Positions 3,088 to 29,259 of a stretch of DNA of 39,834 nt are shown here, piece after piece. Position numbers and translations under genes: made by a program. The notes beneath the pieces are model-generated. The model was not told the origin of the DNA. It was given only the letters and a program-made list of their open reading frames with translations, and did not search any database. The stretch is from a virus (lineage: Duplodnaviria > Heunggongvirae > Uroviricota > Caudoviricetes): the IMG/VR virus record IMGVR_UViG_2563366858_000008; one strand, 5' to 3'. Numbering within the stretch: position 1 is the stretch's first letter; every line of letters starts with the position of its first letter.

Positions 3088-3190
3088 AAAGACCACCGTT
3101 TAATGTGCATGAAGCCCCACTTAGTTAGTGAAATAACACACATATTAAACCATATATGAATCACATTTAAACGGATAACTCTTCACGAAA

Positions 3191-3205: not shown

Positions 3206-3241
3206 TATCATTGGGTTATCCTATTCAAAACGATAGCAATT

Positions 3242-5182
3242 ATGTCTTATTTAAAATACAGAACAGATATTGATGGGCTGCGAGCTATTGCGGTTTTGCT
3301 GGTCGTGCTGTACCACGCAAACTTTCCTATTCATGGTGGTTTTATTGGTGTAGATGTTTTTTTCGTCATATCAGGATATCTCATTACCAACATCATATAT
3401 AAAGAGACTAAAAGAAATATTTTTTCATTCCTTAATTTTTACAAACGTCGAATAAAGCGATTGCTCCCAGCTTTTGCTTTTCTTCTTTTATTTTTATTTG
3501 TTTACTGCAAATTATATTTGATGCCAGATGAACTTATATCATTCTCTAAAAGTGCGGTATACGCTCTTCTTGGCATAAGCAATTTCTATTTTTTTAGTGG
3601 CACAGGTTACTTTAACTCAACCTCTTATGAACCGCTTTTACACACATGGTCGCTTTCCGTTGAAGAGCAGTTCTACATTGTATGGCCTTTCATCGTTTTC
3701 ATGCTCGCTCGGAACTCAGGGACAAAAAAAGCAATAATAATATCCTCATTACTATTTATTGTATTCCTTGGTATTTCACAGTATGGAGCAGTTAATTATA
3801 AAACAGCAGCGTATCTCCTACTGCCTTTTAGGTTCTTTGAGTTGCTCTCAGGTGCCCTACTTGCTATCTATAAAGATTCAATAACAAAACATCTGCGCCA
3901 CGGTTCTGTAATTTCACTGGTCGGCGTAATGCTGATTGTGTTGAGTTCATTATTTATAAATTCTAACACGCCATTTCCTGGGTTCACTGTTTTGCCTACA
4001 TGTTTAGGCGCTGTAATGCTTATTGCTGCAGGTGACTCATCCAAAAACTTCATTTCTAAAGTGCTGTCTTTAACTCCAGTTGTTTATGTAGGAAGAATTT
4101 CCTACTCTCTTTATTTATGGCACTGGCCTGTACTGATTCTTGCTGAATACAGGGGGATCGATCTTACGGCCTTAAATGCGACGGCGCTCATACTTATCGC
4201 ATTCATCATGGCAAGCATAAGCTATCACTTCGTTGAAAAGCCATTTAGGAAGGATTCGCTGCAATATTTCAGGACTGCATTTATAACCATCTACCTGATA
4301 CCATTAATAGTATCCGCTGCCTATGCAGCGTACATTTTAAAAAATGATGGTTTTCGCGCCAAAAGTTCAGAGTTAGTATCTGAATTAGAAGAGAGAAACG
4401 CGACAAATATTATGCGCCCACAGTGTATTGATAAATTATTTATCGGTAATGTAAATGACTGTCATCTTGGCGTTAATAAAGGCGAAGTAGATGGCGTGCT
4501 TCTTGGTGACTCCTTTGGTAATGCATATGCTTACTTTATTGATGAACTTGCGAAAGATGCTGGAATATCAATAACAGATACTACATATAGCTCAACACCT
4601 GTAATATCAGGAATTTATGTGCAGGATATCAGGAATAAGATATCTGACATAGATGCTAACCTGATAATGACATATACAAAAAACAGGCTGGAGTATGCAG
4701 CAAAACAAAAGTTCGCGATAATTTCCGTTTTTTGGGATCAGTACGGGCCACAAAATAATTACTTCCGTATCTTCGATAAAAACGGTGACGTATCGGAGAA
4801 TGCTTACCAGTTGCAATCTGAAGCAATAAAATATCTGCTGTCCAATGGCGTGAAAGTTTACATCATTGCAAGACCTTACCAGTCTATTGGCCCTGCTGCG
4901 ATAAACAAACTGCGCCAAATTAAGCTGCGGCATGGGGATGTAACTACTGAAAAATATGAATACGGCGTAAAGAAAGATGATCGGATAGAATACAAGTTAA
5001 AGCAGGAGTTCCCTCAGATAACGCTAATCGATCCTAACGATGTACTTTGCCACAAAGGGGAATGTGATGCCATCGTGGATGGAAAGATCATTTTCAGAAC
5101 TGATGGTTCACACCTGAATGCTGTTGGAGCAAAAAAAATCGGGGAAGAGTATTTGAAAAACTACGCAAACCCATTTCGATAA
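3242..5182 (+). CDS. O-antigen O-acetyltransferase, acyltransferase-3 membrane domain plus SGNH domain (OafA/Oac-like); lysogenic conversion
   Basis: N-terminal multi-TM domain with conserved YRxDIDGLRAIAV...H motif; C-terminal GDSFG (SGNH) motif; 646 aa; AT-rich relative to neighbours. Confidence 0.85.
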   Translation: MSYLKYRTDIDGLRAIAVLLVVLYHANFPIHGGFIGVDVFFVISGYLITNIIYKETKRNIFSFLNFYKRRIKRLLPAFAFLLLFLFVYCKLYLMPDELISFSKSAVYALLGISNFYFFSGTGYFNSTSYEPLLHTWSLSVEEQFYIVWPFIVFMLARNSGTKKAIIISSLLFIVFLGISQYGAVNYKTAAYLLLPFRFFELLSGALLAIYKDSITKHLRHGSVISLVGVMLIVLSSLFINSNTPFPGFTVLPTCLGAVMLIAAGDSSKNFISKVLSLTPVVYVGRISYSLYLWHWPVLILAEYRGIDLTALNATALILIAFIMASISYHFVEKPFRKDSLQYFRTAFITIYLIPLIVSAAYAAYILKNDGFRAKSSELVSELEERNATNIMRPQCIDKLFIGNVNDCHLGVNKGEVDGVLLGDSFGNAYAYFIDELAKDAGISITDTTYSSTPVISGIYVQDIRNKISDIDANLIMTYTKNRLEYAAKQKFAIISVFWDQYGPQNNYFRIFDKNGDVSENAYQLQSEAIKYLLSNGVKVYIIARPYQSIGPAAINKLRQIKLRHGDVTTEKYEYGVKKDDRIEYKLKQEFPQITLIDPNDVLCHKGECDAIVDGKIIFRTDGSHLNAVGAKKIGEEYLKNYANPFR

Positions 5183-5185
5183 GGA

Positions 5186-5203
5186 GTGCGCCTCGCGGCG
5201 CAC
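5186..5203. terminator. GC-rich stem-loop between convergent acetyltransferase and tailspike genes
   Basis: GTGCGCC-tcgc-GGCGCAC; no clear U-tract on either strand. Confidence 0.4.
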
Positions 5204-5212
5204 ATGCCTAAA

Positions 5213-7444
5213 TTAAGACTTCTTAAGGTACGACCATGTAACAGTGGTCGTACCGCTGCTGGTAATAGATATATACCTTTCTGATACGCTTGCTGTGAGG
5301 AACGCCGCAGTCTTCAGCGTCTGGATCATTGCTGTCGTACCATCATAAATTACCAGGAATGAAATCGCGTAGTTTGCACCTCCGCCAGAAACCCACACGT
5401 TAACATCATAAACTCCCTCAGAGTTTGGCAAAGTAAATAGCACGGACGCTACGTTAGCGTTGACCGATTTAGTACCCTTGTCGGTATAGACCGTGGGCAC
5501 CTGAAGCCCATTGGCATTTTTATTTTCTACATACCCACCAGCAATAACGCCTGACGTGATGCAGTTCGTGTAGTTAACGTTGCCGGTGCTCACAGTAGAG
5601 ATGGTTGGAGTTCCTCCGGCCGGAGCCTGGAACCGGCAGTTATCTGCATCAACCTGCGAGGTTACATCTGTGTGGATGAATGATGGATAGCCGGCCATTC
5701 CTTCAAAAGCGATCGGCGTACCATCGAAGCTATCTTTGCAGTTCAGCATCTTCACGCGAGATCCATTTATCGCGCGGTAAAAATCAACGATACCATTAGA
5801 ACCACCGAAAGATGTTTTCAACTTGTTGCCAGAACCAACTGCCCCGACTATCGAAACGGTTGAATTATCGAATGTCATAAACGCCACCTCAAGTGCTGAG
5901 TTGTTGTTTATAACGTTCGCCTCACCATCAAAACCGGAGATAAGAAATCCGTGACAATTCGAAAGGTAAATAGCAGACTGACCGATAGACTCGTTGGAGT
6001 TTACTGTCATCTTATCTGCTGCGCAGTTCGTCATCTGCCCTGAAAGGAGGTTTGTTAAATACCACGCGCATACACCCCCCATTACATAGCAGGACTCATA
6101 ATGGATCGTCGTGCCGGTGTTTTTGTAGAAACCACCGCGACTGCGACGCACCCATACATGCTCAAGCCTAGACATATAATTTCCAGAGTCGTCATATACT
6201 CCCCACCATGCCCCATCTATATCGACGTTTTTAATCCTTATCAAACCCGGCGATGTCTCACCACCATTTATAAGAATGCCAATTTTACCGTCGTTTGTGG
6301 CAGCATCTGTTGGATAGTCAATTCCATTCTGATCATAGAAAATATATAAATTCTCAATATTTCCTGAAGCAAAAGACTCTCCATAATGGAAGCACGCTTT
6401 ATTTCCAATTACGGAAATAAAAGTCCCTGATCTGTTTATTATGTTATTACACTCACCGTATACAGTTGCAGATGTATTCATCTTAATAGTGTCATTAACA
6501 AAATATGCATTTCCACCTGGAATAAACACATTTCGTCCAGTGTTAATAGCTGCCTGTATTCCTGCGTAGTCAAAAGACTGGGTAAGCGATGTCACAAATG
6601 GATATACCATTTGTGCTGCTGTCAATGTTGAAAACACTTCGCTTAACTGATGAAGTTTTCCATCGCCTGTAGCACCAAAATCTTTTGCACTAATAAAATC
6701 GCTGTTTTTATCATGCTGTGTACGAATAAATGAACTAATGAAAGGTTGCTTCACCGAGATCAGAGCATCGCCTTTCCCGTCCTCGCCGCTGGCCAACTGG
6801 TTGAATACATCAGCCGCCGTTCCTGAAGGCACAGGGAACGGAACGGGCTTACCGTTGGCGATGCCGATTATGCTTCCTTCAAGTTGAGCGAGAGGTGGCA
6901 GCGGATCGATATAAGAATCAGGAACACGGATTGTATGGTCGATATTCGATAAAACCGTACTGTCCACATAATTCTTTGTGGATGCATCCTGCGGGTTTAC
7001 CGGGTCTTTCAGGTTTCGAATATAGTTGTTCAGCGCGTTATAATAATTTGCCACGAATGACGGCTTGCGCAGCGCCAAGCTAAACCAACTTCGAACCTGC
7101 TGGATCAGCATCGTTAGCTTATCAAAAGCATCCTCATGCACTTCTGCAAAGAACTTCCCCTGATTACGCAAATCAGTTTCCTGCGTAACCGGGAGCTCTC
7201 GTGATATAGAAATCTGGTAACCGTTAGCTAACGCCTTCGACAGAATTACATTACCGCCGTTATATCCACCAGCCCCAGTGACAGTGTAATCAGTATCAAG
7301 AGCCAGCACAGCGATATTTTCGTCAAGGTCAACCACCTGCACTACCAGATCAGATTCCTTGAAAACCCTAAAGGTATAAGGGAATGAAGTCGTAACGCCA
7401 TTGCCTGTGTATTCGTTGTGGTCAACTTCGGTTGAGACCGTCAT
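5213..7444 (-). CDS. Tailspike protein
   Basis: 743 aa; N-terminal MTVSTEVDHNEYTGNGVTTSFPYTF resembles the particle-binding domain of epsilon15-type tailspikes (recalled); central region has beta-helix-like repeats; GGAG RBS. Confidence 0.75.
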   Translation of the reverse strand: MTVSTEVDHNEYTGNGVTTSFPYTFRVFKESDLVVQVVDLDENIAVLALDTDYTVTGAGGYNGGNVILSKALANGYQISISRELPVTQETDLRNQGKFFAEVHEDAFDKLTMLIQQVRSWFSLALRKPSFVANYYNALNNYIRNLKDPVNPQDASTKNYVDSTVLSNIDHTIRVPDSYIDPLPPLAQLEGSIIGIANGKPVPFPVPSGTAADVFNQLASGEDGKGDALISVKQPFISSFIRTQHDKNSDFISAKDFGATGDGKLHQLSEVFSTLTAAQMVYPFVTSLTQSFDYAGIQAAINTGRNVFIPGGNAYFVNDTIKMNTSATVYGECNNIINRSGTFISVIGNKACFHYGESFASGNIENLYIFYDQNGIDYPTDAATNDGKIGILINGGETSPGLIRIKNVDIDGAWWGVYDDSGNYMSRLEHVWVRRSRGGFYKNTGTTIHYESCYVMGGVCAWYLTNLLSGQMTNCAADKMTVNSNESIGQSAIYLSNCHGFLISGFDGEANVINNNSALEVAFMTFDNSTVSIVGAVGSGNKLKTSFGGSNGIVDFYRAINGSRVKMLNCKDSFDGTPIAFEGMAGYPSFIHTDVTSQVDADNCRFQAPAGGTPTISTVSTGNVNYTNCITSGVIAGGYVENKNANGLQVPTVYTDKGTKSVNANVASVLFTLPNSEGVYDVNVWVSGGGANYAISFLVIYDGTTAMIQTLKTAAFLTASVSERYISITSSGTTTVTWSYLKKS

Positions 7445-7600
7445 GTTAAATCTCCAGATAGTCGCAGCACCCGTTGCGCCGCATATCTGGTTATTCTATT
7501 ACCTGAAAAACCATATATGGATGGAAAGAGTGTTAATGTGAGCAGATATTACCTTTCAGGTGATTCGCAAAACGTGCTGGATAGCAAACAAATTATCTGC

Positions 7601-7620
7601 TACTGTATAAATATACAGTT
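7601..7620 (+). promoter_or_regulatory. LexA (SOS) box
   Basis: TACTGTATAAATATACAGTT matches CTGT-(A/T)8-ACAG; lies 20 bp upstream of the moron start codon. Confidence 0.75.
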
Positions 7621-7639: not shown

Positions 7640-7897
7640 ATGCAGCAGTATCACTATCCACTGAAAGAGGGATTTACCGAAAGGATTCACACGCCGGGAG
7701 GCGTCAGGTCACTGGTGGAAGGATCGCACTTGATGAAATTACTCCGGGATCTCGATAAGGATGGATTTAATGTCGATGGCCCACTTGCCGAACTGACTGC
7801 ACTGATTAACTACGTCACCAGCTCACAGATGTCTATGCAGGATCTGCAAACACATCTCGACTATTGTGCCGAACAATTACGAAAACAAACCCGGTAA
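7640..7897 (+). CDS. Small SOS-regulated moron protein, unknown function (candidate antirepressor)
   Basis: GGAGAAG RBS 5 nt before ATG 7640; 85 aa; the track's longer ORF from 7517 would contain the LexA box. Confidence 0.6.
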   Translation: MQQYHYPLKEGFTERIHTPGGVRSLVEGSHLMKLLRDLDKDGFNVDGPLAELTALINYVTSSQMSMQDLQTHLDYCAEQLRKQTR

Positions 7898-7904
7898 ATT
7901 TAAA

Positions 7905-7920
7905 GGCCGCGAAAGCGGCC
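7905..7920 (-). terminator. Intrinsic terminator after the lipoprotein gene
   Basis: GGCCGC-gaaa-GCGGCC hairpin; on the minus strand followed by TTTAAATTT. Confidence 0.6.
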
Positions 7921-7921
7921 T

Positions 7922-7933
7922 GTGACATGTCAC
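7922..7933. repeat. 12-bp perfect palindrome GTGACATGTCAC, copy 1
   Basis: Between lipoprotein stop (7937) and terminator hairpin. Confidence 0.8.
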
Positions 7934-7936
7934 GAC

Positions 7937-8350
7937 TTATAAAGATGACTGATATTTTACAACTCTGTTCATGGCATCTTTTTTCACCGAGCTGATATCA
8001 GTTCTTATTTTGGCTTCGTCATTACTGTTTATCATGCTATTAACTTTTTGCACAGACATGCCGTTTCTTTCAGCCATTGCACATACAGCAGCATCGTATG
8101 AAGAACTCGCTGCGATGGATATAACCTTGTTACACTCAAACACAGCACCTTCAGCAATATCAGATGCCGATGATGCTGACTTGGTATAAGTCTTGACGTA
8201 GTGATCAATACAACTATCCTTCGCCGTCTTGGCAAGAGAAAAATCCATTTTAACCTTGTCGCAATATGCCTTATCAACACCGTCATAAACATCATAGGAT
8301 GTCGAGCAAGCGGATATCAAAAATACCGATAACAGCAATAATTCCTTCAT
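7937..8350 (-). CDS. Lipoprotein moron (possible superinfection exclusion)
   Basis: Signal peptide with lipobox ISAC; 137 aa; AT-rich; between ejection-protein genes and tailspike. Confidence 0.6.
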   Translation of the reverse strand: MKELLLLSVFLISACSTSYDVYDGVDKAYCDKVKMDFSLAKTAKDSCIDHYVKTYTKSASSASDIAEGAVFECNKVISIAASSSYDAAVCAMAERNGMSVQKVNSMINSNDEAKIRTDISSVKKDAMNRVVKYQSSL

Positions 8351-8359
8351 TGTTGTTCC

Positions 8360-10834
8360 TTATTGCGGAGTGACATCCTGAGGTCGCCACCAGTATGTCT
8401 GGTTAAACTCTTTCTTCGAACGTTGCTCCATTTTACGCAAATAGCCTGGTGAAAAATACTCCTGCATCTGGTTAAAGATCATGTGATCGAGAGCCGCCTT
8501 TAAGTACCAGAGATTCGCACCTGGCATCAGACCTTTCCCCAGCTTAACCAGATCACCACCAGTCTGCTCATTCTTCCCTTCCACAGCATTTAACGGTATG
8601 CCCTGAGCAATCTTCACTACGTCATCAACCAGACCAGCTACCGGGCCAAGCATCGACGCCAGCGCGCCGCTTCCGTACCTAGTGTGATCTGACAATAAAA
8701 AGTCACCGTAAAGGCCAAGACCACCACCTTTCAGTAGAGCACCAAGCCAAAATTTAGCAGCATCTTCTCCTGTCATCTCGCGATGATTACGACCAGACGC
8801 AAGGTCGTTAAGTTGCTGAGACAAAGCGCCAAGAATGGTCGTGCTGGCAATAAACGTCGCAATATATGCCGCACGCCCACCAGCAGACGGCATACCCATA
8901 GCGCGTGACCAGTGACGCATAACCACCGAGATAGGGAACGATTTAAACAGGAAAACACTTCTCGTTAATTCACCTTTCCATGTTCCACGCTGAATACCAG
9001 AACCGGTTATCAGTTGCTCACGTGCTCCCGGTGTAATAACAGCCATATCAACTTCTTCAGTTACGGCACCGAGCAGTTTACGCATTGCCTCAAATTTCAC
9101 GCGTTCAGGCTCACCAAGATGTTTAACTGCTGAATCAGGGATACGCATAATGCTTTCCGGTGTCAGCATCGTATTATTACCGTTCCCCCAGTCCTCCTGT
9201 TGCGCCAGCTTCCATACGCTCCAGTCTGTGTCAGTAATCCCTTTGCTTTTCAGGATACGAAAATCAGAGTCATCGAGGCTACGAAGGTCTGGTGTCCGTG
9301 ACACTACTTCTCCCAGGCTTCCCATCATGGTTACGCCATAGGCGCGCTTGTGCGCATCTGACCATGCTGTAAGCCCACTGGCACGCATTACCGCCGTTGC
9401 CGCCCAACGAGACACTGACGGCCCCATATTATCCATCGCCCAGCGGTTAACGCTGCCAAGTAGAGATTCCATCGCCAGACCAGCGCGGCGCGCCCGCGCA
9501 AGTTCTGTACGGTTCGTTGGGTCCATAGCTTCAAGCTGGTTGCGAAATAACTGGTTCATTGGAAGGTTGGTCACCTTCGCAGACAGATACATGGTTCCAA
9601 GATCAGAGAACGATGACAGCAACGCGGATCCGAGTCTGCTGGCAACCAGCCAGTTGCGGATAGTGTCAGACCATCGCGCGATGTGCGGATTCGCTACAGG
9701 CTGTGTCTTTCCGGAAATAAAGTTGTACAGATTCTCTGTGTTGTTCGCCAGCCGCTCGACTTTACCGGTTTTACTCGGGTTAGCTGTTGCCGTTTCTGCC
9801 TTAACCTGATCAAGAAGGGAGCGGAAAACATGATCGGGGTTTGGACCATATGTTTCCACCAGAGCAATATCTTTACTGATACCTTCCAGGTGACCGACCA
9901 TGATTTCCCATAGAGAGCGATCACCATAAAGTTGTTGATATTGGAGATAGGAATCTGCATCTTTGAAATGTATCTGTCGTGATGCATTACCACGGTTAGC
10001 ACGTGCGCCGGAAATTCGCATTCCGGTATCAGTAAGCTTATTCAGCCCACCAGTAGCGATCGTGTTATAAGCCTCTCCAAGAAATGCAGACAACTCGGCA
10101 TCGTTCATCAGTTGTCCATCGGCTCGGGTATAATATTTGCGATCCAGCTTACCTATAACATCGCCAACCCACTTATCCTTTGATACCGCCCCAACCTTTT
10201 CCATAGAATGATGTTGAGGGATCCCCCAGTTTTCGAGATAGCCAATGTCCCCACCAGCATCATTAAACCGGCGGCGCAGCAGCTCTGTAACTTCTCTCCA
10301 CGCCTTAGCACCTTTTCTTGCTTTAGCATTGCCAGTATTTTGCCCCCGCATTTCATATACCAGGTCACGTACGCCCGCTTCATCTTCAAACAGACCAAAA
10401 AAGCGAGGATCAACTGCTTCGAATGCCTCCTGCAATTGACTCAATGCATAATCACGGGTGGCTTTTGTTCTGGATTCAACAGAGAGGAAATTAGATTTAC
10501 CGTCTGCATTAAAAGCTATAGTACGGTTAAGAGCGCCAAGTTTACCATCAGCCCCTTGATAGCTATTGATAAATTTATCCAATCTCTGACGCGCGGCTAT
10601 AGTGAGAGCCACACGACGTTTCTTTAATGCCGCTTCTCGCTGTAATTCTTCAGATGCCAATTGTGCTGCTCGATATAGCCGCTCTGATTCGGAAAGTTGT
10701 CGCCACGACATCGGGTCATCACGAGCAATGGAGCGCATATTTCGATAAATGCGGTCTTCAATGTTCTGTATTTCTCGCGCCGTTAACGTGCGCTGCGCCG
10801 CCTGCTGGACCGCTTGTATACATTCCTGTCTCAT
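8360..10834 (-). CDS. Large internal virion / DNA-ejection protein
   Basis: 824 aa; last of a block of large co-directional genes between head and tailspike, as in T7/epsilon15-type podoviruses. Confidence 0.5.
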   Translation of the reverse strand: MRQECIQAVQQAAQRTLTAREIQNIEDRIYRNMRSIARDDPMSWRQLSESERLYRAAQLASEELQREAALKKRRVALTIAARQRLDKFINSYQGADGKLGALNRTIAFNADGKSNFLSVESRTKATRDYALSQLQEAFEAVDPRFFGLFEDEAGVRDLVYEMRGQNTGNAKARKGAKAWREVTELLRRRFNDAGGDIGYLENWGIPQHHSMEKVGAVSKDKWVGDVIGKLDRKYYTRADGQLMNDAELSAFLGEAYNTIATGGLNKLTDTGMRISGARANRGNASRQIHFKDADSYLQYQQLYGDRSLWEIMVGHLEGISKDIALVETYGPNPDHVFRSLLDQVKAETATANPSKTGKVERLANNTENLYNFISGKTQPVANPHIARWSDTIRNWLVASRLGSALLSSFSDLGTMYLSAKVTNLPMNQLFRNQLEAMDPTNRTELARARRAGLAMESLLGSVNRWAMDNMGPSVSRWAATAVMRASGLTAWSDAHKRAYGVTMMGSLGEVVSRTPDLRSLDDSDFRILKSKGITDTDWSVWKLAQQEDWGNGNNTMLTPESIMRIPDSAVKHLGEPERVKFEAMRKLLGAVTEEVDMAVITPGAREQLITGSGIQRGTWKGELTRSVFLFKSFPISVVMRHWSRAMGMPSAGGRAAYIATFIASTTILGALSQQLNDLASGRNHREMTGEDAAKFWLGALLKGGGLGLYGDFLLSDHTRYGSGALASMLGPVAGLVDDVVKIAQGIPLNAVEGKNEQTGGDLVKLGKGLMPGANLWYLKAALDHMIFNQMQEYFSPGYLRKMEQRSKKEFNQTYWWRPQDVTPQ

Positions 10835-22151: not shown

Positions 22152-22448
22152 TCACTCCTGTTCACTGGCCTCTTTGGCCATCTTCAAATACTGTTCAGGG
22201 CAATGCGCCATAACGCGCTGAAACAGTTCCAGCGCCAGATTGCGTTGCCCCTCATTAAATGCCATAGCCATAGCGTCCATCGGTGAGATAGCAGAAAACA
22301 CACGGCCTTTCTCCAGCACCGACCAGACAACGCGACGCCCCTGTTCACTGCTCATGACAAAGCGAATGTCATCAATTTCACGCTGTGCCATGTCACGTTG
22401 CTTACGGGCGTTTTCTTCTTTCAGTTGATCGTCTTCGTAATCTGTCAT
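22152..22448 (-). CDS. Small head-assembly protein
   Basis: 98 aa; ATGA overlap with portal stop. Confidence 0.5.
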   Translation of the reverse strand: MTDYEDDQLKEENARKQRDMAQREIDDIRFVMSSEQGRRVVWSVLEKGRVFSAISPMDAMAMAFNEGQRNLALELFQRVMAHCPEQYLKMAKEASEQE

Positions 22449-24419: not shown

Positions 24420-24435
24420 TTTAACGCACAAATTA

Positions 24436-24772: not shown

Positions 24773-24849
24773 GTGGCATTAGCTCAGTTGGACAGAGCAA
24801 CCGCCTTCTAAGCGGTTGGTCGCAGGTTCGAATCCTGCATGCCACGCCA
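24773..24849 (+). tRNA. tRNA-Arg (anticodon UCU), phage-encoded
   Basis: Full cloverleaf: acceptor GTGGCAT/ATGCCAC, D-arm GCTC/GAGC, anticodon stem ACCGC/GCGGT with loop CTTCTAA, T-arm GCAGG-TTCGAAT-CCTGC, discriminator G and encoded CCA. Confidence 0.95.
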
Positions 24850-25052: not shown

Positions 25053-25424
25053 ATGAGTGACAAAGACATTGAATCTGAAATTCAGGCTAAAGGTTTAGCC
25101 GCGCCGCGCGTTACGCCAGACCATATCGAGAGCATTATTGCTCAGGAGGCATATTTCACAGCAGAAGATGGTGTCTTTGGCGTAGCCATAAAAGCGAAAC
25201 ATACTGGCGGAGAGGTAAACTACCAGCCGCACGAATCACTTTCTCTGCTGACGTTCTGCGTTCTGGTGCTGCGCAACGGCTTCACCGTCACCGGAGAGAG
25301 CGCCTGTGCAAGCCCGGAAAACTTTGATGCGGAAATTGGTCGGAAGATTGCCCGGCAGAATGCTGTAAACAAAATCTGGATGCTTGAAGGTTACTTGCTG
25401 AAGCAGAAGTTAAGCGAGCAATAA
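25053..25424 (+). CDS. Moron protein of unknown function, co-located with the tRNA
   Basis: AAGGTGAG RBS; 123 aa; opposite strand to flanking terminase and portal genes. Confidence 0.65.
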   Translation: MSDKDIESEIQAKGLAAPRVTPDHIESIIAQEAYFTAEDGVFGVAIKAKHTGGEVNYQPHESLSLLTFCVLVLRNGFTVTGESACASPENFDAEIGRKIARQNAVNKIWMLEGYLLKQKLSEQ

Positions 25425-25428
25425 CACC

Positions 25429-25440
25429 GTGACATGTCAC
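25429..25440. repeat. 12-bp perfect palindrome GTGACATGTCAC, copy 2
   Basis: 4 bp after the stop of the 25053 gene, immediately before a terminator. Confidence 0.8.
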
Positions 25441-25444
25441 AAAC

Positions 25445-25471
25445 AGCCAGCCGATGAGCTGGCTTTGTTTT
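25445..25471 (+). terminator. Intrinsic terminator
   Basis: AGCCAGC-cgatga-GCTGGCT followed by TTGTTTTAT. Confidence 0.7.
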
Positions 25472-25514
25472 ATCCTCACCAGAGGATATCTCCGTCATTA
25501 TCCCCGCTAACGGA

Positions 25515-26990: not shown

Positions 26991-27583
26991 TGATTGCCAT
27001 CCTGACGTTCTTTCAGTCTCTTCCTGGCTGCCGCTATGCGATCAGCAATTGTCACATTCACATTAACATCCAGGCGTTCTTTGAACGCGTTGACATCAAC
27101 ATGCTTACCAATCAGCTCAAGGTTCTTCACCTTGTCAGGCCATTTAATTTTTTTGAGGATTGTCTCTATCGAATCCTCGTTCATGTTCATGATGGTCGAT
27201 GACAGATCAAAGCCACTAAGCGTAGTGCGCCAGATTTTCGGCCACTCACGGATTGGTTTAAGGCTCCCATCGTCGTTGAGGATATCGATCACGTCCATCT
27301 GGTCGATCTCCACCAGGCGCATGAGAACGTAATCAGCACTGACGCGCATTCGTTTGTTGCGCTCCTCCATCAACTCGGCAATCCGTTTTTGAATGCGTAC
27401 ATCGCGCATCATGACACTGGCTTTAACTGCCGCTGTATTTGGGGAGAACCCTGCGTTAATCGCTGCCTGAGTCTGGTTTTCAGGCGTTTTGATGTATGAC
27501 TGGCAATAAGCCTCCTGCATTGCTGTGAGCGGCTTAAATTGCGTTGATTTGCGTTTATAGGTTTTAGGTTCAGCAGGCATCAT
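26987..27583 (-). CDS. Terminase small subunit
   Basis: Start MMPAEPK at ATG 27583 (the track's N-terminal extension to 27661 crosses a terminator and operator repeats); motif QEAYCQSYIKT...AAINAGFS typical of small subunits. Confidence 0.75.
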   Translation of the reverse strand: MMPAEPKTYKRKSTQFKPLTAMQEAYCQSYIKTPENQTQAAINAGFSPNTAAVKASVMMRDVRIQKRIAELMEERNKRMRVSADYVLMRLVEIDQMDVIDILNDDGSLKPIREWPKIWRTTLSGFDLSSTIMNMNEDSIETILKKIKWPDKVKNLELIGKHVDVNAFKERLDVNVNVTIADRIAAARKRLKERQDGNQ

Positions 27584-27597
27584 AACCACCGTGGTAA
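27583..27597. promoter_or_regulatory. Operator-like repeat TAACCACCGTGGTAA (1 mismatch), overlapping terS start
   Basis: Adjacent to the perfect copy at 27601; 18 bp centre-to-centre. Confidence 0.45.
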
Positions 27598-27600
27598 TAG

Positions 27601-27615
27601 TTACCGTTGTGGTAA
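27601..27615. promoter_or_regulatory. Operator-like inverted repeat TTACCGTTGTGGTAA (perfect)
   Basis: Between the late-leader terminator and the terS start codon. Confidence 0.6.
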
Positions 27616-27622
27616 TAGTACC

Positions 27623-27652
27623 ATGCAAAATAAAGCCGCCATAGTTGGCGGC
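27623..27652 (-). terminator. Intrinsic terminator immediately upstream of the terminase genes (tR'-like)
   Basis: GCCGCC-aactat-GGCGGC followed by TTTATTTTG on the minus strand. Confidence 0.65.
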
Positions 27653-27657
27653 AGTAT

Positions 27658-27870
27658 TCAAAGTCCATCAAATTCATCGTAAAAACTCTCGTCAAGATAC
27701 CCTTCCCATTTACCGCGAATGAAAATTACATCCTCGCCGCAAGGGTGCTGACTGTCGATAACTATATCCCTCCTGGCGCAACCATACTTATGCATGAGAA
27801 ATTTAACCTCTTTCGGAAAATTTGCTGAGTTATCTCTCATATCTTCAAGGTCGTAGCGTATTTTTGGCAT
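27658..27870 (-). CDS. Small protein of unknown function
   Basis: Start MPKIRYD at ATG 27870 with GAAGGTG RBS; 70 aa; the track start at 27891 is a GTG inside the palindrome. Confidence 0.5.
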   Translation of the reverse strand: MPKIRYDLEDMRDNSANFPKEVKFLMHKYGCARRDIVIDSQHPCGEDVIFIRGKWEGYLDESFYDEFDGL

Positions 27871-27879
27871 AACACCTTC

Positions 27880-27891
27880 GTGACATGTCAC
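27880..27891. repeat. 12-bp perfect palindrome GTGACATGTCAC, copy 3
   Basis: Contains the TGA stop of the 27888..28226 gene and abuts the RBS of the 27658..27870 gene. Confidence 0.8.
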
Positions 27892-28226
27892 ACTATTAAT
27901 TTTGTTTCATGCCAGCCTTTAGTCACCCAGCATTGCGAGTCACCATTGCACGGGCATGAATTAACTGGAACTCTCTCGCCGCACTTACCGCAACGTTTTC
28001 TGCTGATCGATTTTATACGCCCGCGCACGCGTGCATCATCCTGGCGGATCAGTAACGCTATATACTCACCAAATTCGTAAGGCACACGCCCGGGGCGACG
28101 CGTGGCGCAGTTCCGCTCCAGCATTTCAATTTCCTGAGCATCAAGCACAATCTCCAGCTTACGTACACCGGATGCAGCTTGTCTGGCTCTCTGAGCGGCT
28201 TTGCGCTCTGCTGCTGATTTAGCCAT
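27888..28226 (-). CDS. Zinc-ribbon protein (candidate late-gene regulator)
   Basis: Start MAKSAAERK at ATG 28226 (in-frame ATG 28232 and GTG 28238 upstream); C-terminal CGKCG...CPCNG four-Cys motif; last regulatory-sized gene before the late-operon terminator. Confidence 0.5.
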   Translation of the reverse strand: MAKSAAERKAAQRARQAASGVRKLEIVLDAQEIEMLERNCATRRPGRVPYEFGEYIALLIRQDDARVRGRIKSISRKRCGKCGERVPVNSCPCNGDSQCWVTKGWHETKLIV

Positions 28227-28311: not shown

Positions 28312-29259
28312 TTATTCACCATCCTGCTCAGGCGGTTCTGGCAGCGGCATCCAGTGTGATGGAATCCACGACGCACCAGGAATTATCCAACCATCATTAG
28401 CGTCAGGATGTCCCGGTATGTAAGTCGCCCATTTCATTCGCCAGTCACCTTTCCTGTCAAACTCCACGGCAACAAGAACGGCTGTTTTGGTATCCGGCAT
28501 TCGCTCACTACAGCTTATCCAACCATCCGGAGTTACCGGATAGTTGCCAGCCAGTCTACGCAAAACAGCCTTAACAGCCTCAATACGGTCATCATCGCAA
28601 TTTTCCAGCGTATCTATGCGGTCGAGCATGATGATTGCGTTATCAATATCAGGATTGCCGGTCCACTCATTACCGCGATTGGATTCGGCAGCCTGGTTGC
28701 CACGTACTGGTTGATTCTCGGCTTTACCCTGTCTGTCGTCGCTGCATGAATGCCCTTCCAGCCAGACCAGTGCTTGTCGCATGAAATACGCAATATGCTT
28801 GCCGTGGTAATCGTCTTCATCGATGTGAAAAGCGATACTGCGGATATATTCAATTGCGTTTTCAATGGCCTCTAACGCTATCGGTGCTGGCGGAGTGGTA
28901 TATAGTTTTCGACATTTGTTTATCCAACCGGCATGGTCAGGCGTGTCTGTAAAGCGCAAATCGTCTTCGTAGCCCTCACGACTACGTTCTTTCCATTCCG
29001 TCCACGGAACACCGCTATTCCAAGTGGGGCGAGTGCAGGACTGATACAGAACAGGCTCTGCTTCCAGCGATGCCAGCACAATTCGTGCCAGCTCACGCAC
29101 TACTTCCGGGGGCGCGTAACGGTCATTCAGGTCATCCCACAGGCGTAGCATGTTATCGCTACTAGGGTGAACATCCTCGTTAGTTCCGGCAAGCGCACTA
29201 ATAACCTCATCGGCTGCCTCAATAATTTTCAGAGCTTGTTCTCTGGTAATAGTGGTCAT
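28312..29259 (-). CDS. DUF551-type phage protein
   Basis: 315 aa; C-terminal WMPLPEPP motif typical of DUF551 (recalled); ATGA overlap with upstream gene. Confidence 0.55.
   Translation of the reverse strand: MTTITREQALKIIEAADEVISALAGTNEDVHPSSDNMLRLWDDLNDRYAPPEVVRELARIVLASLEAEPVLYQSCTRPTWNSGVPWTEWKERSREGYEDDLRFTDTPDHAGWINKCRKLYTTPPAPIALEAIENAIEYIRSIAFHIDEDDYHGKHIAYFMRQALVWLEGHSCSDDRQGKAENQPVRGNQAAESNRGNEWTGNPDIDNAIIMLDRIDTLENCDDDRIEAVKAVLRRLAGNYPVTPDGWISCSERMPDTKTAVLVAVEFDRKGDWRMKWATYIPGHPDANDGWIIPGASWIPSHWMPLPEPPEQDGE

Follow-up and report, generated by a model that had tools for sequence, protein, structure and literature searches.

Small dimeric ribbon-helix-helix (RHH) proteins that act on short palindromes include Arc and Mnt of phage P22, CopG, ParD and TacA, and the P22 immI region is located between the late genes and the tailspike, beside ant. 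MatP, which organizes the Ter macrodomain of Escherichia coli, is likewise a dimeric RHH protein, and its site, matS, is a 13-bp palindrome (GTGAC-RNY-GTCAC) found at few positions per replicon and without a tie to promoters. In phage lambda, the gene for the late antitermination regulator Q comes last before the late genes, with its DNA binding element just downstream of the gene, then a terminator (tR') and then the late genes. Moron slots hold variable cargo of low GC content beside a short conserved sequence and a terminator, with many alternative cargos for one slot.

Here, we describe an element that resembles each of these systems, found in 39,834 nucleotides of viral DNA (IMG/VR record IMGVR_UViG_2563366858_000008; this whole stretch is hereafter the window). 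The window is a phiV10/epsilon15-like podovirus of the genus Uetakevirus, and most of it is collinear with phiV10 read in reverse. It contains three exact copies of the palindrome GTGACATGTCAC, starting at 7922 (copy 1), 25429 (copy 2) and 27880 (copy 3), compared to a chance expectation of 0.02 based on shuffled sequences; 0 of 100 shuffles reached three copies. In our judgment, copy 1 (7922–7933) is probably one of three cognate binding sites for the phage protein p55, and we tentatively propose that binding may have a roadblock or insulator effect. A one-mismatch palindrome at 22385 and a near match at 8905 were rejected as further copies; both are within coding regions and fit chance, and the former is present only in phiV10-type relatives.

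Compared with MatP/matS, the phage palindrome has the same identical half-sites (GTGAC and GTCAC), few sites per replicon and no promoter association, but the phage sites span 12 bp (11 bp in one clade) and their half-sites are one base closer. No 13-bp site is present in the window, and sites with a 2-nt centre outnumber those with a 3-nt centre by 62 to 1 in 36 loci. p55 contains a four-cysteine C-terminal motif where MatP has a helix bundle and a coiled coil, it is encoded beside one of its own sites, unlike MatP, and profile alignment does not identify it as a MatP homologue (hhalign probability of 0.2%). On sequence grounds, the resemblance therefore appears to be one of site architecture, and membership in the MatP/matS system is not supported. 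Host MatP is unlikely to bind the phage palindrome, whose spacing differs from that of matS and covaries with the phage protein. p55 resembles Arc and Mnt in being small, phage-encoded and predicted to adopt an RHH fold. However, Arc and Mnt operators overlap promoters, whereas the window sites are at the 3' ends of transcription units, one of them in the regulator's own stop codon, and none is on a recognizable promoter, which does not fit classic operator logic. The position of p55 matches that of lambda Q, but p55 has another predicted fold and extra sites far from promoters, and each late block has its own Rep operator. The slot beside copy 1 differs from a moron slot in that no separate promoter was detected for its lipoprotein cargo, which uses the backbone terminator, and in that its boundary sequence is a candidate protein site also found in unrelated phages.

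Copy 1 is located between two convergent genes. Along the plus strand, the TAA stop codon of ant (7895–7897) is followed by the hairpin GGCCGCgaaaGCGGCC (GGCCGC-GAAA-GCGGCC, 7905–7920, a single occurrence in the window), one T at 7921, the perfect 12-bp palindrome and the stop codon of a minus-strand lipoprotein gene (7937–7939), a sequence exactly as given in a preliminary description of this junction. That description also noted the same order of stop, palindrome and hairpin at copy 2, which holds when each copy is read along the gene that ends beside it: on the minus strand at copy 1, the lipoprotein stop, 3 nt, palindrome, 1 nt, hairpin and TTAAATTTAC; on the plus strand at copy 2, the stop of a PF13876-family gene (25422–25424), 4 nt, palindrome, 4 nt, a hairpin at 25445–25464 and TTGTTTTATC. 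As a putative p55 site without strand, copy 1 thus sits between the last gene of the late operon and its terminator.

Using a terminator scan and RNA folding, we identified the hairpin at copy 1 as an intrinsic terminator on the minus strand (7894–7921), with the stem-loop AGGCCGC-TTTC-GCGGCCT (7921 to 7904), a 7-bp stem (6 GC), a loop of 4, the tail TTAAATTTAC and a fold of −16.5 kcal/mol. The same methods found no U-tract on the plus strand, where TGTGACAT follows the 7905–7920 hairpin on the ant side. The hairpin had been described as a terminator shared by two convergent genes; it is a genuine terminator, that of the late structural operon, and lacks a U-tract for transcripts arriving from ant. 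Terminators accompany the other two window palindromes as well: AGCCAGCCGATGAGCTGGCT then TTGTTTTAT next to copy 2 (25445–25473, plus strand), and GCCGCCAACTATGGCGGC then TTTATTTTG between copy 3 and terS (27626–27652, minus strand). Among 63 distinct palindrome sites, a terminator was present within 45 nt of 21, compared to 6% of random positions; the pairing is enriched but lineage-dependent, and we did not accept it as common to all sites. The whole terminator-palindrome unit is inverted relative to the late operon in TL-2011b-type contigs and Klebsiella phage BUCT711 (L021:5339–5384 and L170:1975–2014), where its U-tract serves the ant/Bro-N side. Given the sites without a terminator and the reversals in the order of palindrome and U-tract, part of the pairing may stem from the placement of both elements in short 3' intergenic regions.

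The two genes flanking copy 1 are of different character. The 85-aa product of ant (7640–7897, plus strand), which is convergent with the late operon, matches chain E of PDB 5d50, ‘Anti-repressor protein’ (E = 5.6e-47), and a LexA-box-like sequence, CTGTATAAATATACAG, is located upstream (7603–7618, plus strand) and matches the LexA-type box perfectly. The gene is kept in every relative examined, including phiV10, PAS61, epsilon15 and SPN1S. Its earlier reading as an SOS moron does not fit a conserved, LexA-controlled antirepressor with 47.7% GC; ant is core phage circuitry and not an accessory gene. The minus-strand gene (7937–8350) encodes a 137-aa lipoprotein with the lipobox LISAC, had a match only to phrog_8691 and is the last gene of the late operon. 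At 38.9% GC compared to 48.7% for the window, it bears out half of the statement that both genes are AT-rich, which does not extend to ant.

To place this gene among relatives, we searched with the exact 29-bp hairpin-plus-palindrome unit, which was found in at least 120 viral contigs, and analysed 121 contexts (120 IMG/VR stretches and the window). The lipoprotein gene was present in 13 of these, with at least seven other cargos elsewhere, and it takes the slot of a gene for a 46-aa membrane protein in phiV10 and PAS61. It starts 9 nt past the stop codon of the gene for an 824-aa virion protein, and no sigma-70-type promoter was detected upstream (8300–9000); it is therefore transcribed as late-operon cargo, with the hairpin as the late-operon terminator. 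Deviant GC content and patchy presence are moron-like, but it lacks its own promoter, and its terminator belongs to the conserved backbone. There is accordingly no moron island at this junction: the lipoprotein gene merely replaces the 46-aa gene at the end of the late operon and is alone the swappable cargo, next to a conserved ant.

Copies 2 and 3 mark comparable junctions. Copy 2 (25429–25440, no strand) lies between the stop of the PF13876 gene (Sf6 gp66/N4 gp49-like) and the terminator shared with terL, and is found at the same place in phiV10, epsilon15 and eight prophages. Copy 3 (27880–27891, no strand) contains the TGA stop codon of the p55 gene (27888–27890, minus strand). Past it come, in order, the ribosome-binding site (RBS) of a 70-aa open reading frame (ORF), a terminator (27635–27652), two Rep-type operators and terS. 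Each palindrome thus closes one of three co-directional units that follow one another, ahead of the next Rep-controlled region: copy 3 ends the early-right operon, copy 2 the terS–terL block and copy 1 the structural block from portal to cargo. The two operators ahead of terS (27582–27616, no strand) resemble ATTACC-N5-GGTAAT, and the equivalent epsilon15 sites are annotated as repressor-binding. Ten matches to this type of operator were found in the window (at 3190, 7548, 24435, 27582, 27600, 31431, 31493, 33848, 34560 and 34622) compared to 0.04 expected, with that at 24435 preceding the portal block and that at 7548 the ant/tailspike region. Several sit before individual late blocks (terS, portal block, ant/tailspike and lysis region), which suggests separate repressor-controlled promoters for the late blocks instead of a single late promoter for all of them.

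The slots beside these two copies vary among relatives. The PF13876 gene (25053–25424), which converges on copy 2, is replaced by at least five unrelated ORFs in related prophages (L126 and L129–L134), mostly with the stop codon exactly 4 nt from the palindrome. Between p55 and terS, the 70-aa ORF (phrog_1541; 27658–27870, minus strand) is represented by a short remnant in phiV10, is missing from epsilon15 and is replaced by a LexA-boxed UmuD-like gene in Klebsiella and other relatives.

Within the genus, the arrangement is conserved. Although DNA identity between epsilon15 and the window is about 80% in the best-conserved genes, or lower, GTGACATGTCAC occurs in epsilon15 three times and no more, at junctions that correspond to those in the window: one copy (2142) follows the terL terminator, one (19517) separates the final gene of the structural operon from its terminator, and one (39612) overlaps the TGA stop of gp49, with a terminator and terS further downstream. 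The layout of phiV10 is the same, with one mismatch in the third copy, which is split across the ends of the linear record. That record ends inside the palindrome (GTGA|CATGTTAC), and we considered a cos or pac end, but this is merely the stop codon of the last annotated gene and the epsilon15 record ends 60 nt further. Copy 1 occupies the same position in phiV10, PAS61, epsilon15, SPN1S, BUCT711 and Tyrion, whatever the cargo.

The gene that ends in copy 3 encodes p55 (27888–28226, minus strand; 112 aa), a member of the epsilon15 gp49/N15 gp46 family (phrog_536) and our proposed palindrome binder. Searches of Pfam, NCBIfam and PDB sequences gave no match, and the PHROGs label is transcriptional regulator. 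Family members conserve a basic N-terminal helix, rich in arginine and lysine, a strand-helix-helix core and four cysteines (C79, C82, C91 and C99), and structure modelling predicts an RHH-like fold plus the four-cysteine motif. Among 1.84 billion representatives, a profile search retrieved only 226 members of the family at E-values up to 0.001.

Homologues outside the genus, found by tblastn with p55, were accompanied by the palindrome. The Pectobacterium myovirus ZF40 has no structural genes in common with the window phage, yet encodes a homologue with 67% identity and contains TGTGACATGTCACA three times, once 2 nt after the stop codon of the homologue. In N15, gp46 is 35% identical, and GTGACTGGTCAC or its complement occurs three times, one of them on the stop of gp46. 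In a P2-like Yersinia phage, the site on the stop codon of the homologue is GTGACGCGTCAC, and Vibrio phage K303, with a homologue at 31% identity, has three 12-bp sites, one of them 19 nt before terS. Three sites per genome were found in each of four complete phage genomes examined (window, epsilon15, ZF40 and N15). Among 30 prophage loci taken from genome contigs, 29 had at least one site and in 20 a site overlapped the stop codon. Overall, the site was found in 35 of 36 loci carrying a p55-family gene, in most lineages on the stop codon of that gene or beside it, with 62 occurrences of GTGAC-N2-GTCAC in 788 kb compared to 0.75 expected; in the same loci, spacers of 0, 1 and 4 nt did not occur and a 3-nt spacer occurred once. 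Phage lambda has no GTGAC-N2-GTCAC sites, and an Aeromonas phage with a weak, partial p55 homologue has no GTGAC/GTCAC sites.

Even where the accompanying proteins are only about 31% identical, the arms of the palindrome do not change; its centre does (AT, GC, TG, CT, AC and others), a pattern that fits a dimer on duplex DNA. Among the distant family members sampled, five keep GTGAC-N2-GTCAC on the stop codon. P0293 and P0284, which are 49% identical, are instead accompanied by an 11-bp form, GTGAC-N1-GTCAC, at all five of their sites (L168:10315, 18059 and 19448; L172:744 and 5156), and this variant is confined to their clade. In the P0210/P0219 clade, the stop codon is without a site. A spacing that changes with protein lineage at every copy per genome is what a cognate protein–site pair predicts, and the palindrome and the p55 gene are co-inherited across unrelated phage types. 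Some further occurrences were noted. Vibrio phage K303 has, besides its 12-bp sites, one true 13-bp matS-consensus site, GTGACACCGTCAC (L160:6769). In two P0210 loci (L164 and L165), a tandem repeat, CTGTATTTCTGGCTTT, follows the gene in place of the site. ZF40-like prophages have one palindrome copy inside an early-left coding sequence (L125:5125, L137:232, L138:3890, L139:4164, L140:2039, L142:3487 and L143:1353), always as the codons TGT GAC ATG TCA (Cys-Asp-Met-Ser) amid diverged protein sequence, which suggests dual constraint from coding and from a DNA site.

From the non-random occurrence, conservation and co-inheritance of the palindrome, the covariation of its spacing and the RHH-like p55 model, we infer that p55 binds it and that binding has an effect. 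Bound as a dimer, p55 would recognize both GTGAC half-sites while leaving the central two bases unconstrained. Our tentative preference is for a roadblock or insulator, with bound p55 acting on the passage of RNA polymerase where one unit ends and the next begins; such a role is usual for RHH proteins, and we regard the mechanism as possible rather than probable. At copy 1, bound p55 would back up the terminator and separate late-operon transcription from convergent ant transcription; on the stop codon of p55, it would restrict transcription running on into the unit that follows. The p55 unit is expected to be silent in a lysogen, so any insulation would be restricted to lytic growth. Some observations sit less well with this reading. 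A different binder encoded nearby could in principle explain the linkage of gene and site. The hairpin is only 1–4 nt away, and the geometry offers no obvious synergy with a roadblock, which would also have to accommodate the flipped order of palindrome and U-tract in TL-2011b-type contigs and BUCT711.

Several previously described sequence types were rejected as the identity of the palindrome. It is not an operator of the prophage repressor, as Rep sites are ATTACC-N5-GGTAAT according to the epsilon15 annotation and all ten in the window are elsewhere, nor is it the LexA box, which is the separate element at 7603–7618. CRP sites have a consensus spacer of 6 nt, which the palindrome does not fit. 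A −35-like GTGACA promoter element was also discarded: no consistently spaced −10 follows the three copies or those of relatives.

Other modes of action can be weighed against the roadblock reading. If p55, last in the early-right operon like lambda Q, loaded at the palindromes and let RNA polymerase read through the three terminators, the result would be late expression of terS–terL, the structural block and the tailspike. The layout agrees with such antitermination in several respects: p55 is directly upstream of the late genes, with its site, then a terminator, then terS; the transcript crossing each of the three window sites runs into an efficient terminator 1 to about 230 nt further downstream; K303 sites precede lysis genes and terS; and in N15 the site at 28550 is between gene 33 and the annotated terminator (28413–28435) that precedes genes 32–30, including the anti-repressor Ant. 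We nevertheless consider it unlikely. RHH proteins are not known as antiterminators, and for Q-type factors acting through a DNA site there is no precedent for promoter-distant loading without a sigma-dependent pause. N15 carries its own Q-like gene (gene 40) as well as the p55 homologue, and in P2-like phages the Ogr position is taken by another transcriptional regulator gene. Moreover, copy 2 comes after the terminator rather than before it for late transcription, the unit is flipped in BUCT711 and TL-2011b-type phages, and each late block has its own Rep-operator region. The half-sites raise an architectural alternative, in which a phage protein akin to MatP joins the three matS-like sites to one another, or disturbs host MatP/matS, and thereby loops or condenses phage DNA instead of controlling particular promoters. 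This we judge to be quite improbable: similarity between the p55 family and Escherichia coli MatP is not significant by hhalign, p55 is without the N-terminal four-helix bundle and C-terminal coiled coil of MatP, and the window has no 13-bp matS. A small RNA hairpin, GUGA-CAUG-UCAC, acting in 3' untranslated and intercistronic regions on termination, processing or translation of the next cistron, and bound by the arginine-rich N-terminus of p55 or by a host factor, is very unlikely. Every copy is transcribed, an RBS often directly follows the site, the p55 N-terminus is rich in arginine and lysine, and RNA folding stacks a 4-bp hairpin onto the terminator. However, the arms stay free of compensatory changes even between loci whose proteins are only about 31% identical, and it is the ‘loop’ that varies; this is the opposite of RNA hairpin recognition, which would allow compensation in the stem and hold the loop constant. 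The stem has only four pairs, energy z-scores of about −2 to −3 derive mainly from the terminator stem, the sole Rfam match in the window at the gathering score is a tRNA (24773–24846), and the predicted p55 fold is that of a DNA-binding RHH protein.

The preliminary description had instead viewed the palindrome as the footprint or target of moron insertion, a recombination site arriving with the cargo or directing it. It does coincide with a mosaic boundary. In the 121 contexts, at least eight unrelated cargo sequences start 1–2 nt past the palindrome to the right of GTGACATGTCAC, and three types of flank start immediately before the hairpin to its left; cargos in the copy 1 slot include the 46-aa protein, the lipoprotein and several more membrane or secreted proteins. 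Copies 2 and 3 are mosaic joints as well, with adjoining DNA equally variable among relatives. Flanks thus diverge 1–2 nt beyond the palindrome at all three copies, many unrelated cargo genes end within 7 nt of it and the whole unit is inverted in some relatives, all as insertion at the site would have it. The palindrome was not carried in by an insert, however. It is there whatever the cargo, including the ancestral 46-aa gene, and occurs with the ancestral small gene in PAS61, phiV10, epsilon15 and SPN1S. Phages without a variable slot at the place concerned likewise have it, within coding sequences or on the stop codon of p55, and its presence in unrelated phages that share only the p55 gene comes close to the palindrome without an adjacent insertion that the preliminary description had itself named as incompatible with its view. 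No recombinase is associated with the palindrome, and conserved functional DNA between dispensable DNA suffices to make a recombination joint. We therefore consider the insertion view extremely unlikely. The palindrome is a backbone element beside which cargo is exchanged, and exchange falls exactly at these points because the conserved DNA of site plus terminator has dispensable genes on its flanks; under the reading as a p55 site, palindrome and terminator would double as the joint for recombinational exchange.

We conclude that p55 and the palindrome are a putative phage regulator–operator pair, unusual in its 3'-end sites, the embedding of a site in the regulator's own stop codon, the presence of three sites in each of the four complete genomes, its matS-type half-sites and its occasional embedding in coding sequence. 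A full-text search of the accessible literature found the 12-mer in no paper and no paper tying GTGAC/GTCAC sites to the p55 family. Epsilon15, phiV10, SPN1S/SPC32H, N15 and ZF40 are well-studied phages, yet the element is unannotated in the epsilon15 and phiV10 GenBank records, both fully listed. The hypothesis is concrete and cheap to test, with one 112-aa protein, one 12-bp site and three positions in each genome. The analysis has a bearing on the delimitation of late transcription units in Uetakeviruses and accounts for the exchange of accessory genes such as the lipoprotein gene at precisely these places. The annotation of the region is also put right, with ant as core circuitry and the lipoprotein gene as late-operon cargo. 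Sharing half-sites with matS, the palindrome also poses the question whether there is cross-talk with the host MatP system or avoidance of it. There is an outside chance that p55 and GTGAC-N2-GTCAC are a phage counterpart of MatP/matS that organizes or bridges the genome at unit boundaries or competes with host chromosome organizers instead of working as a regulator at promoters, or the first RHH-type, DNA-site-dependent modulator of termination at promoter-distant terminators.

Two further features of the window were noted outside these junctions. A tRNA-Arg gene (anticodon TCT; 24773–24849), on which ARAGORN and Rfam agree, is located between the PF13876-family gene and the portal block. About 3.7 kb (3212–6963) has no match in phiV10. 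This region, which looks like a swap of the receptor-binding and serotype module, covers the greater part of the 743-aa tailspike and leaves its N-terminal head-binding portion as the only shared part.
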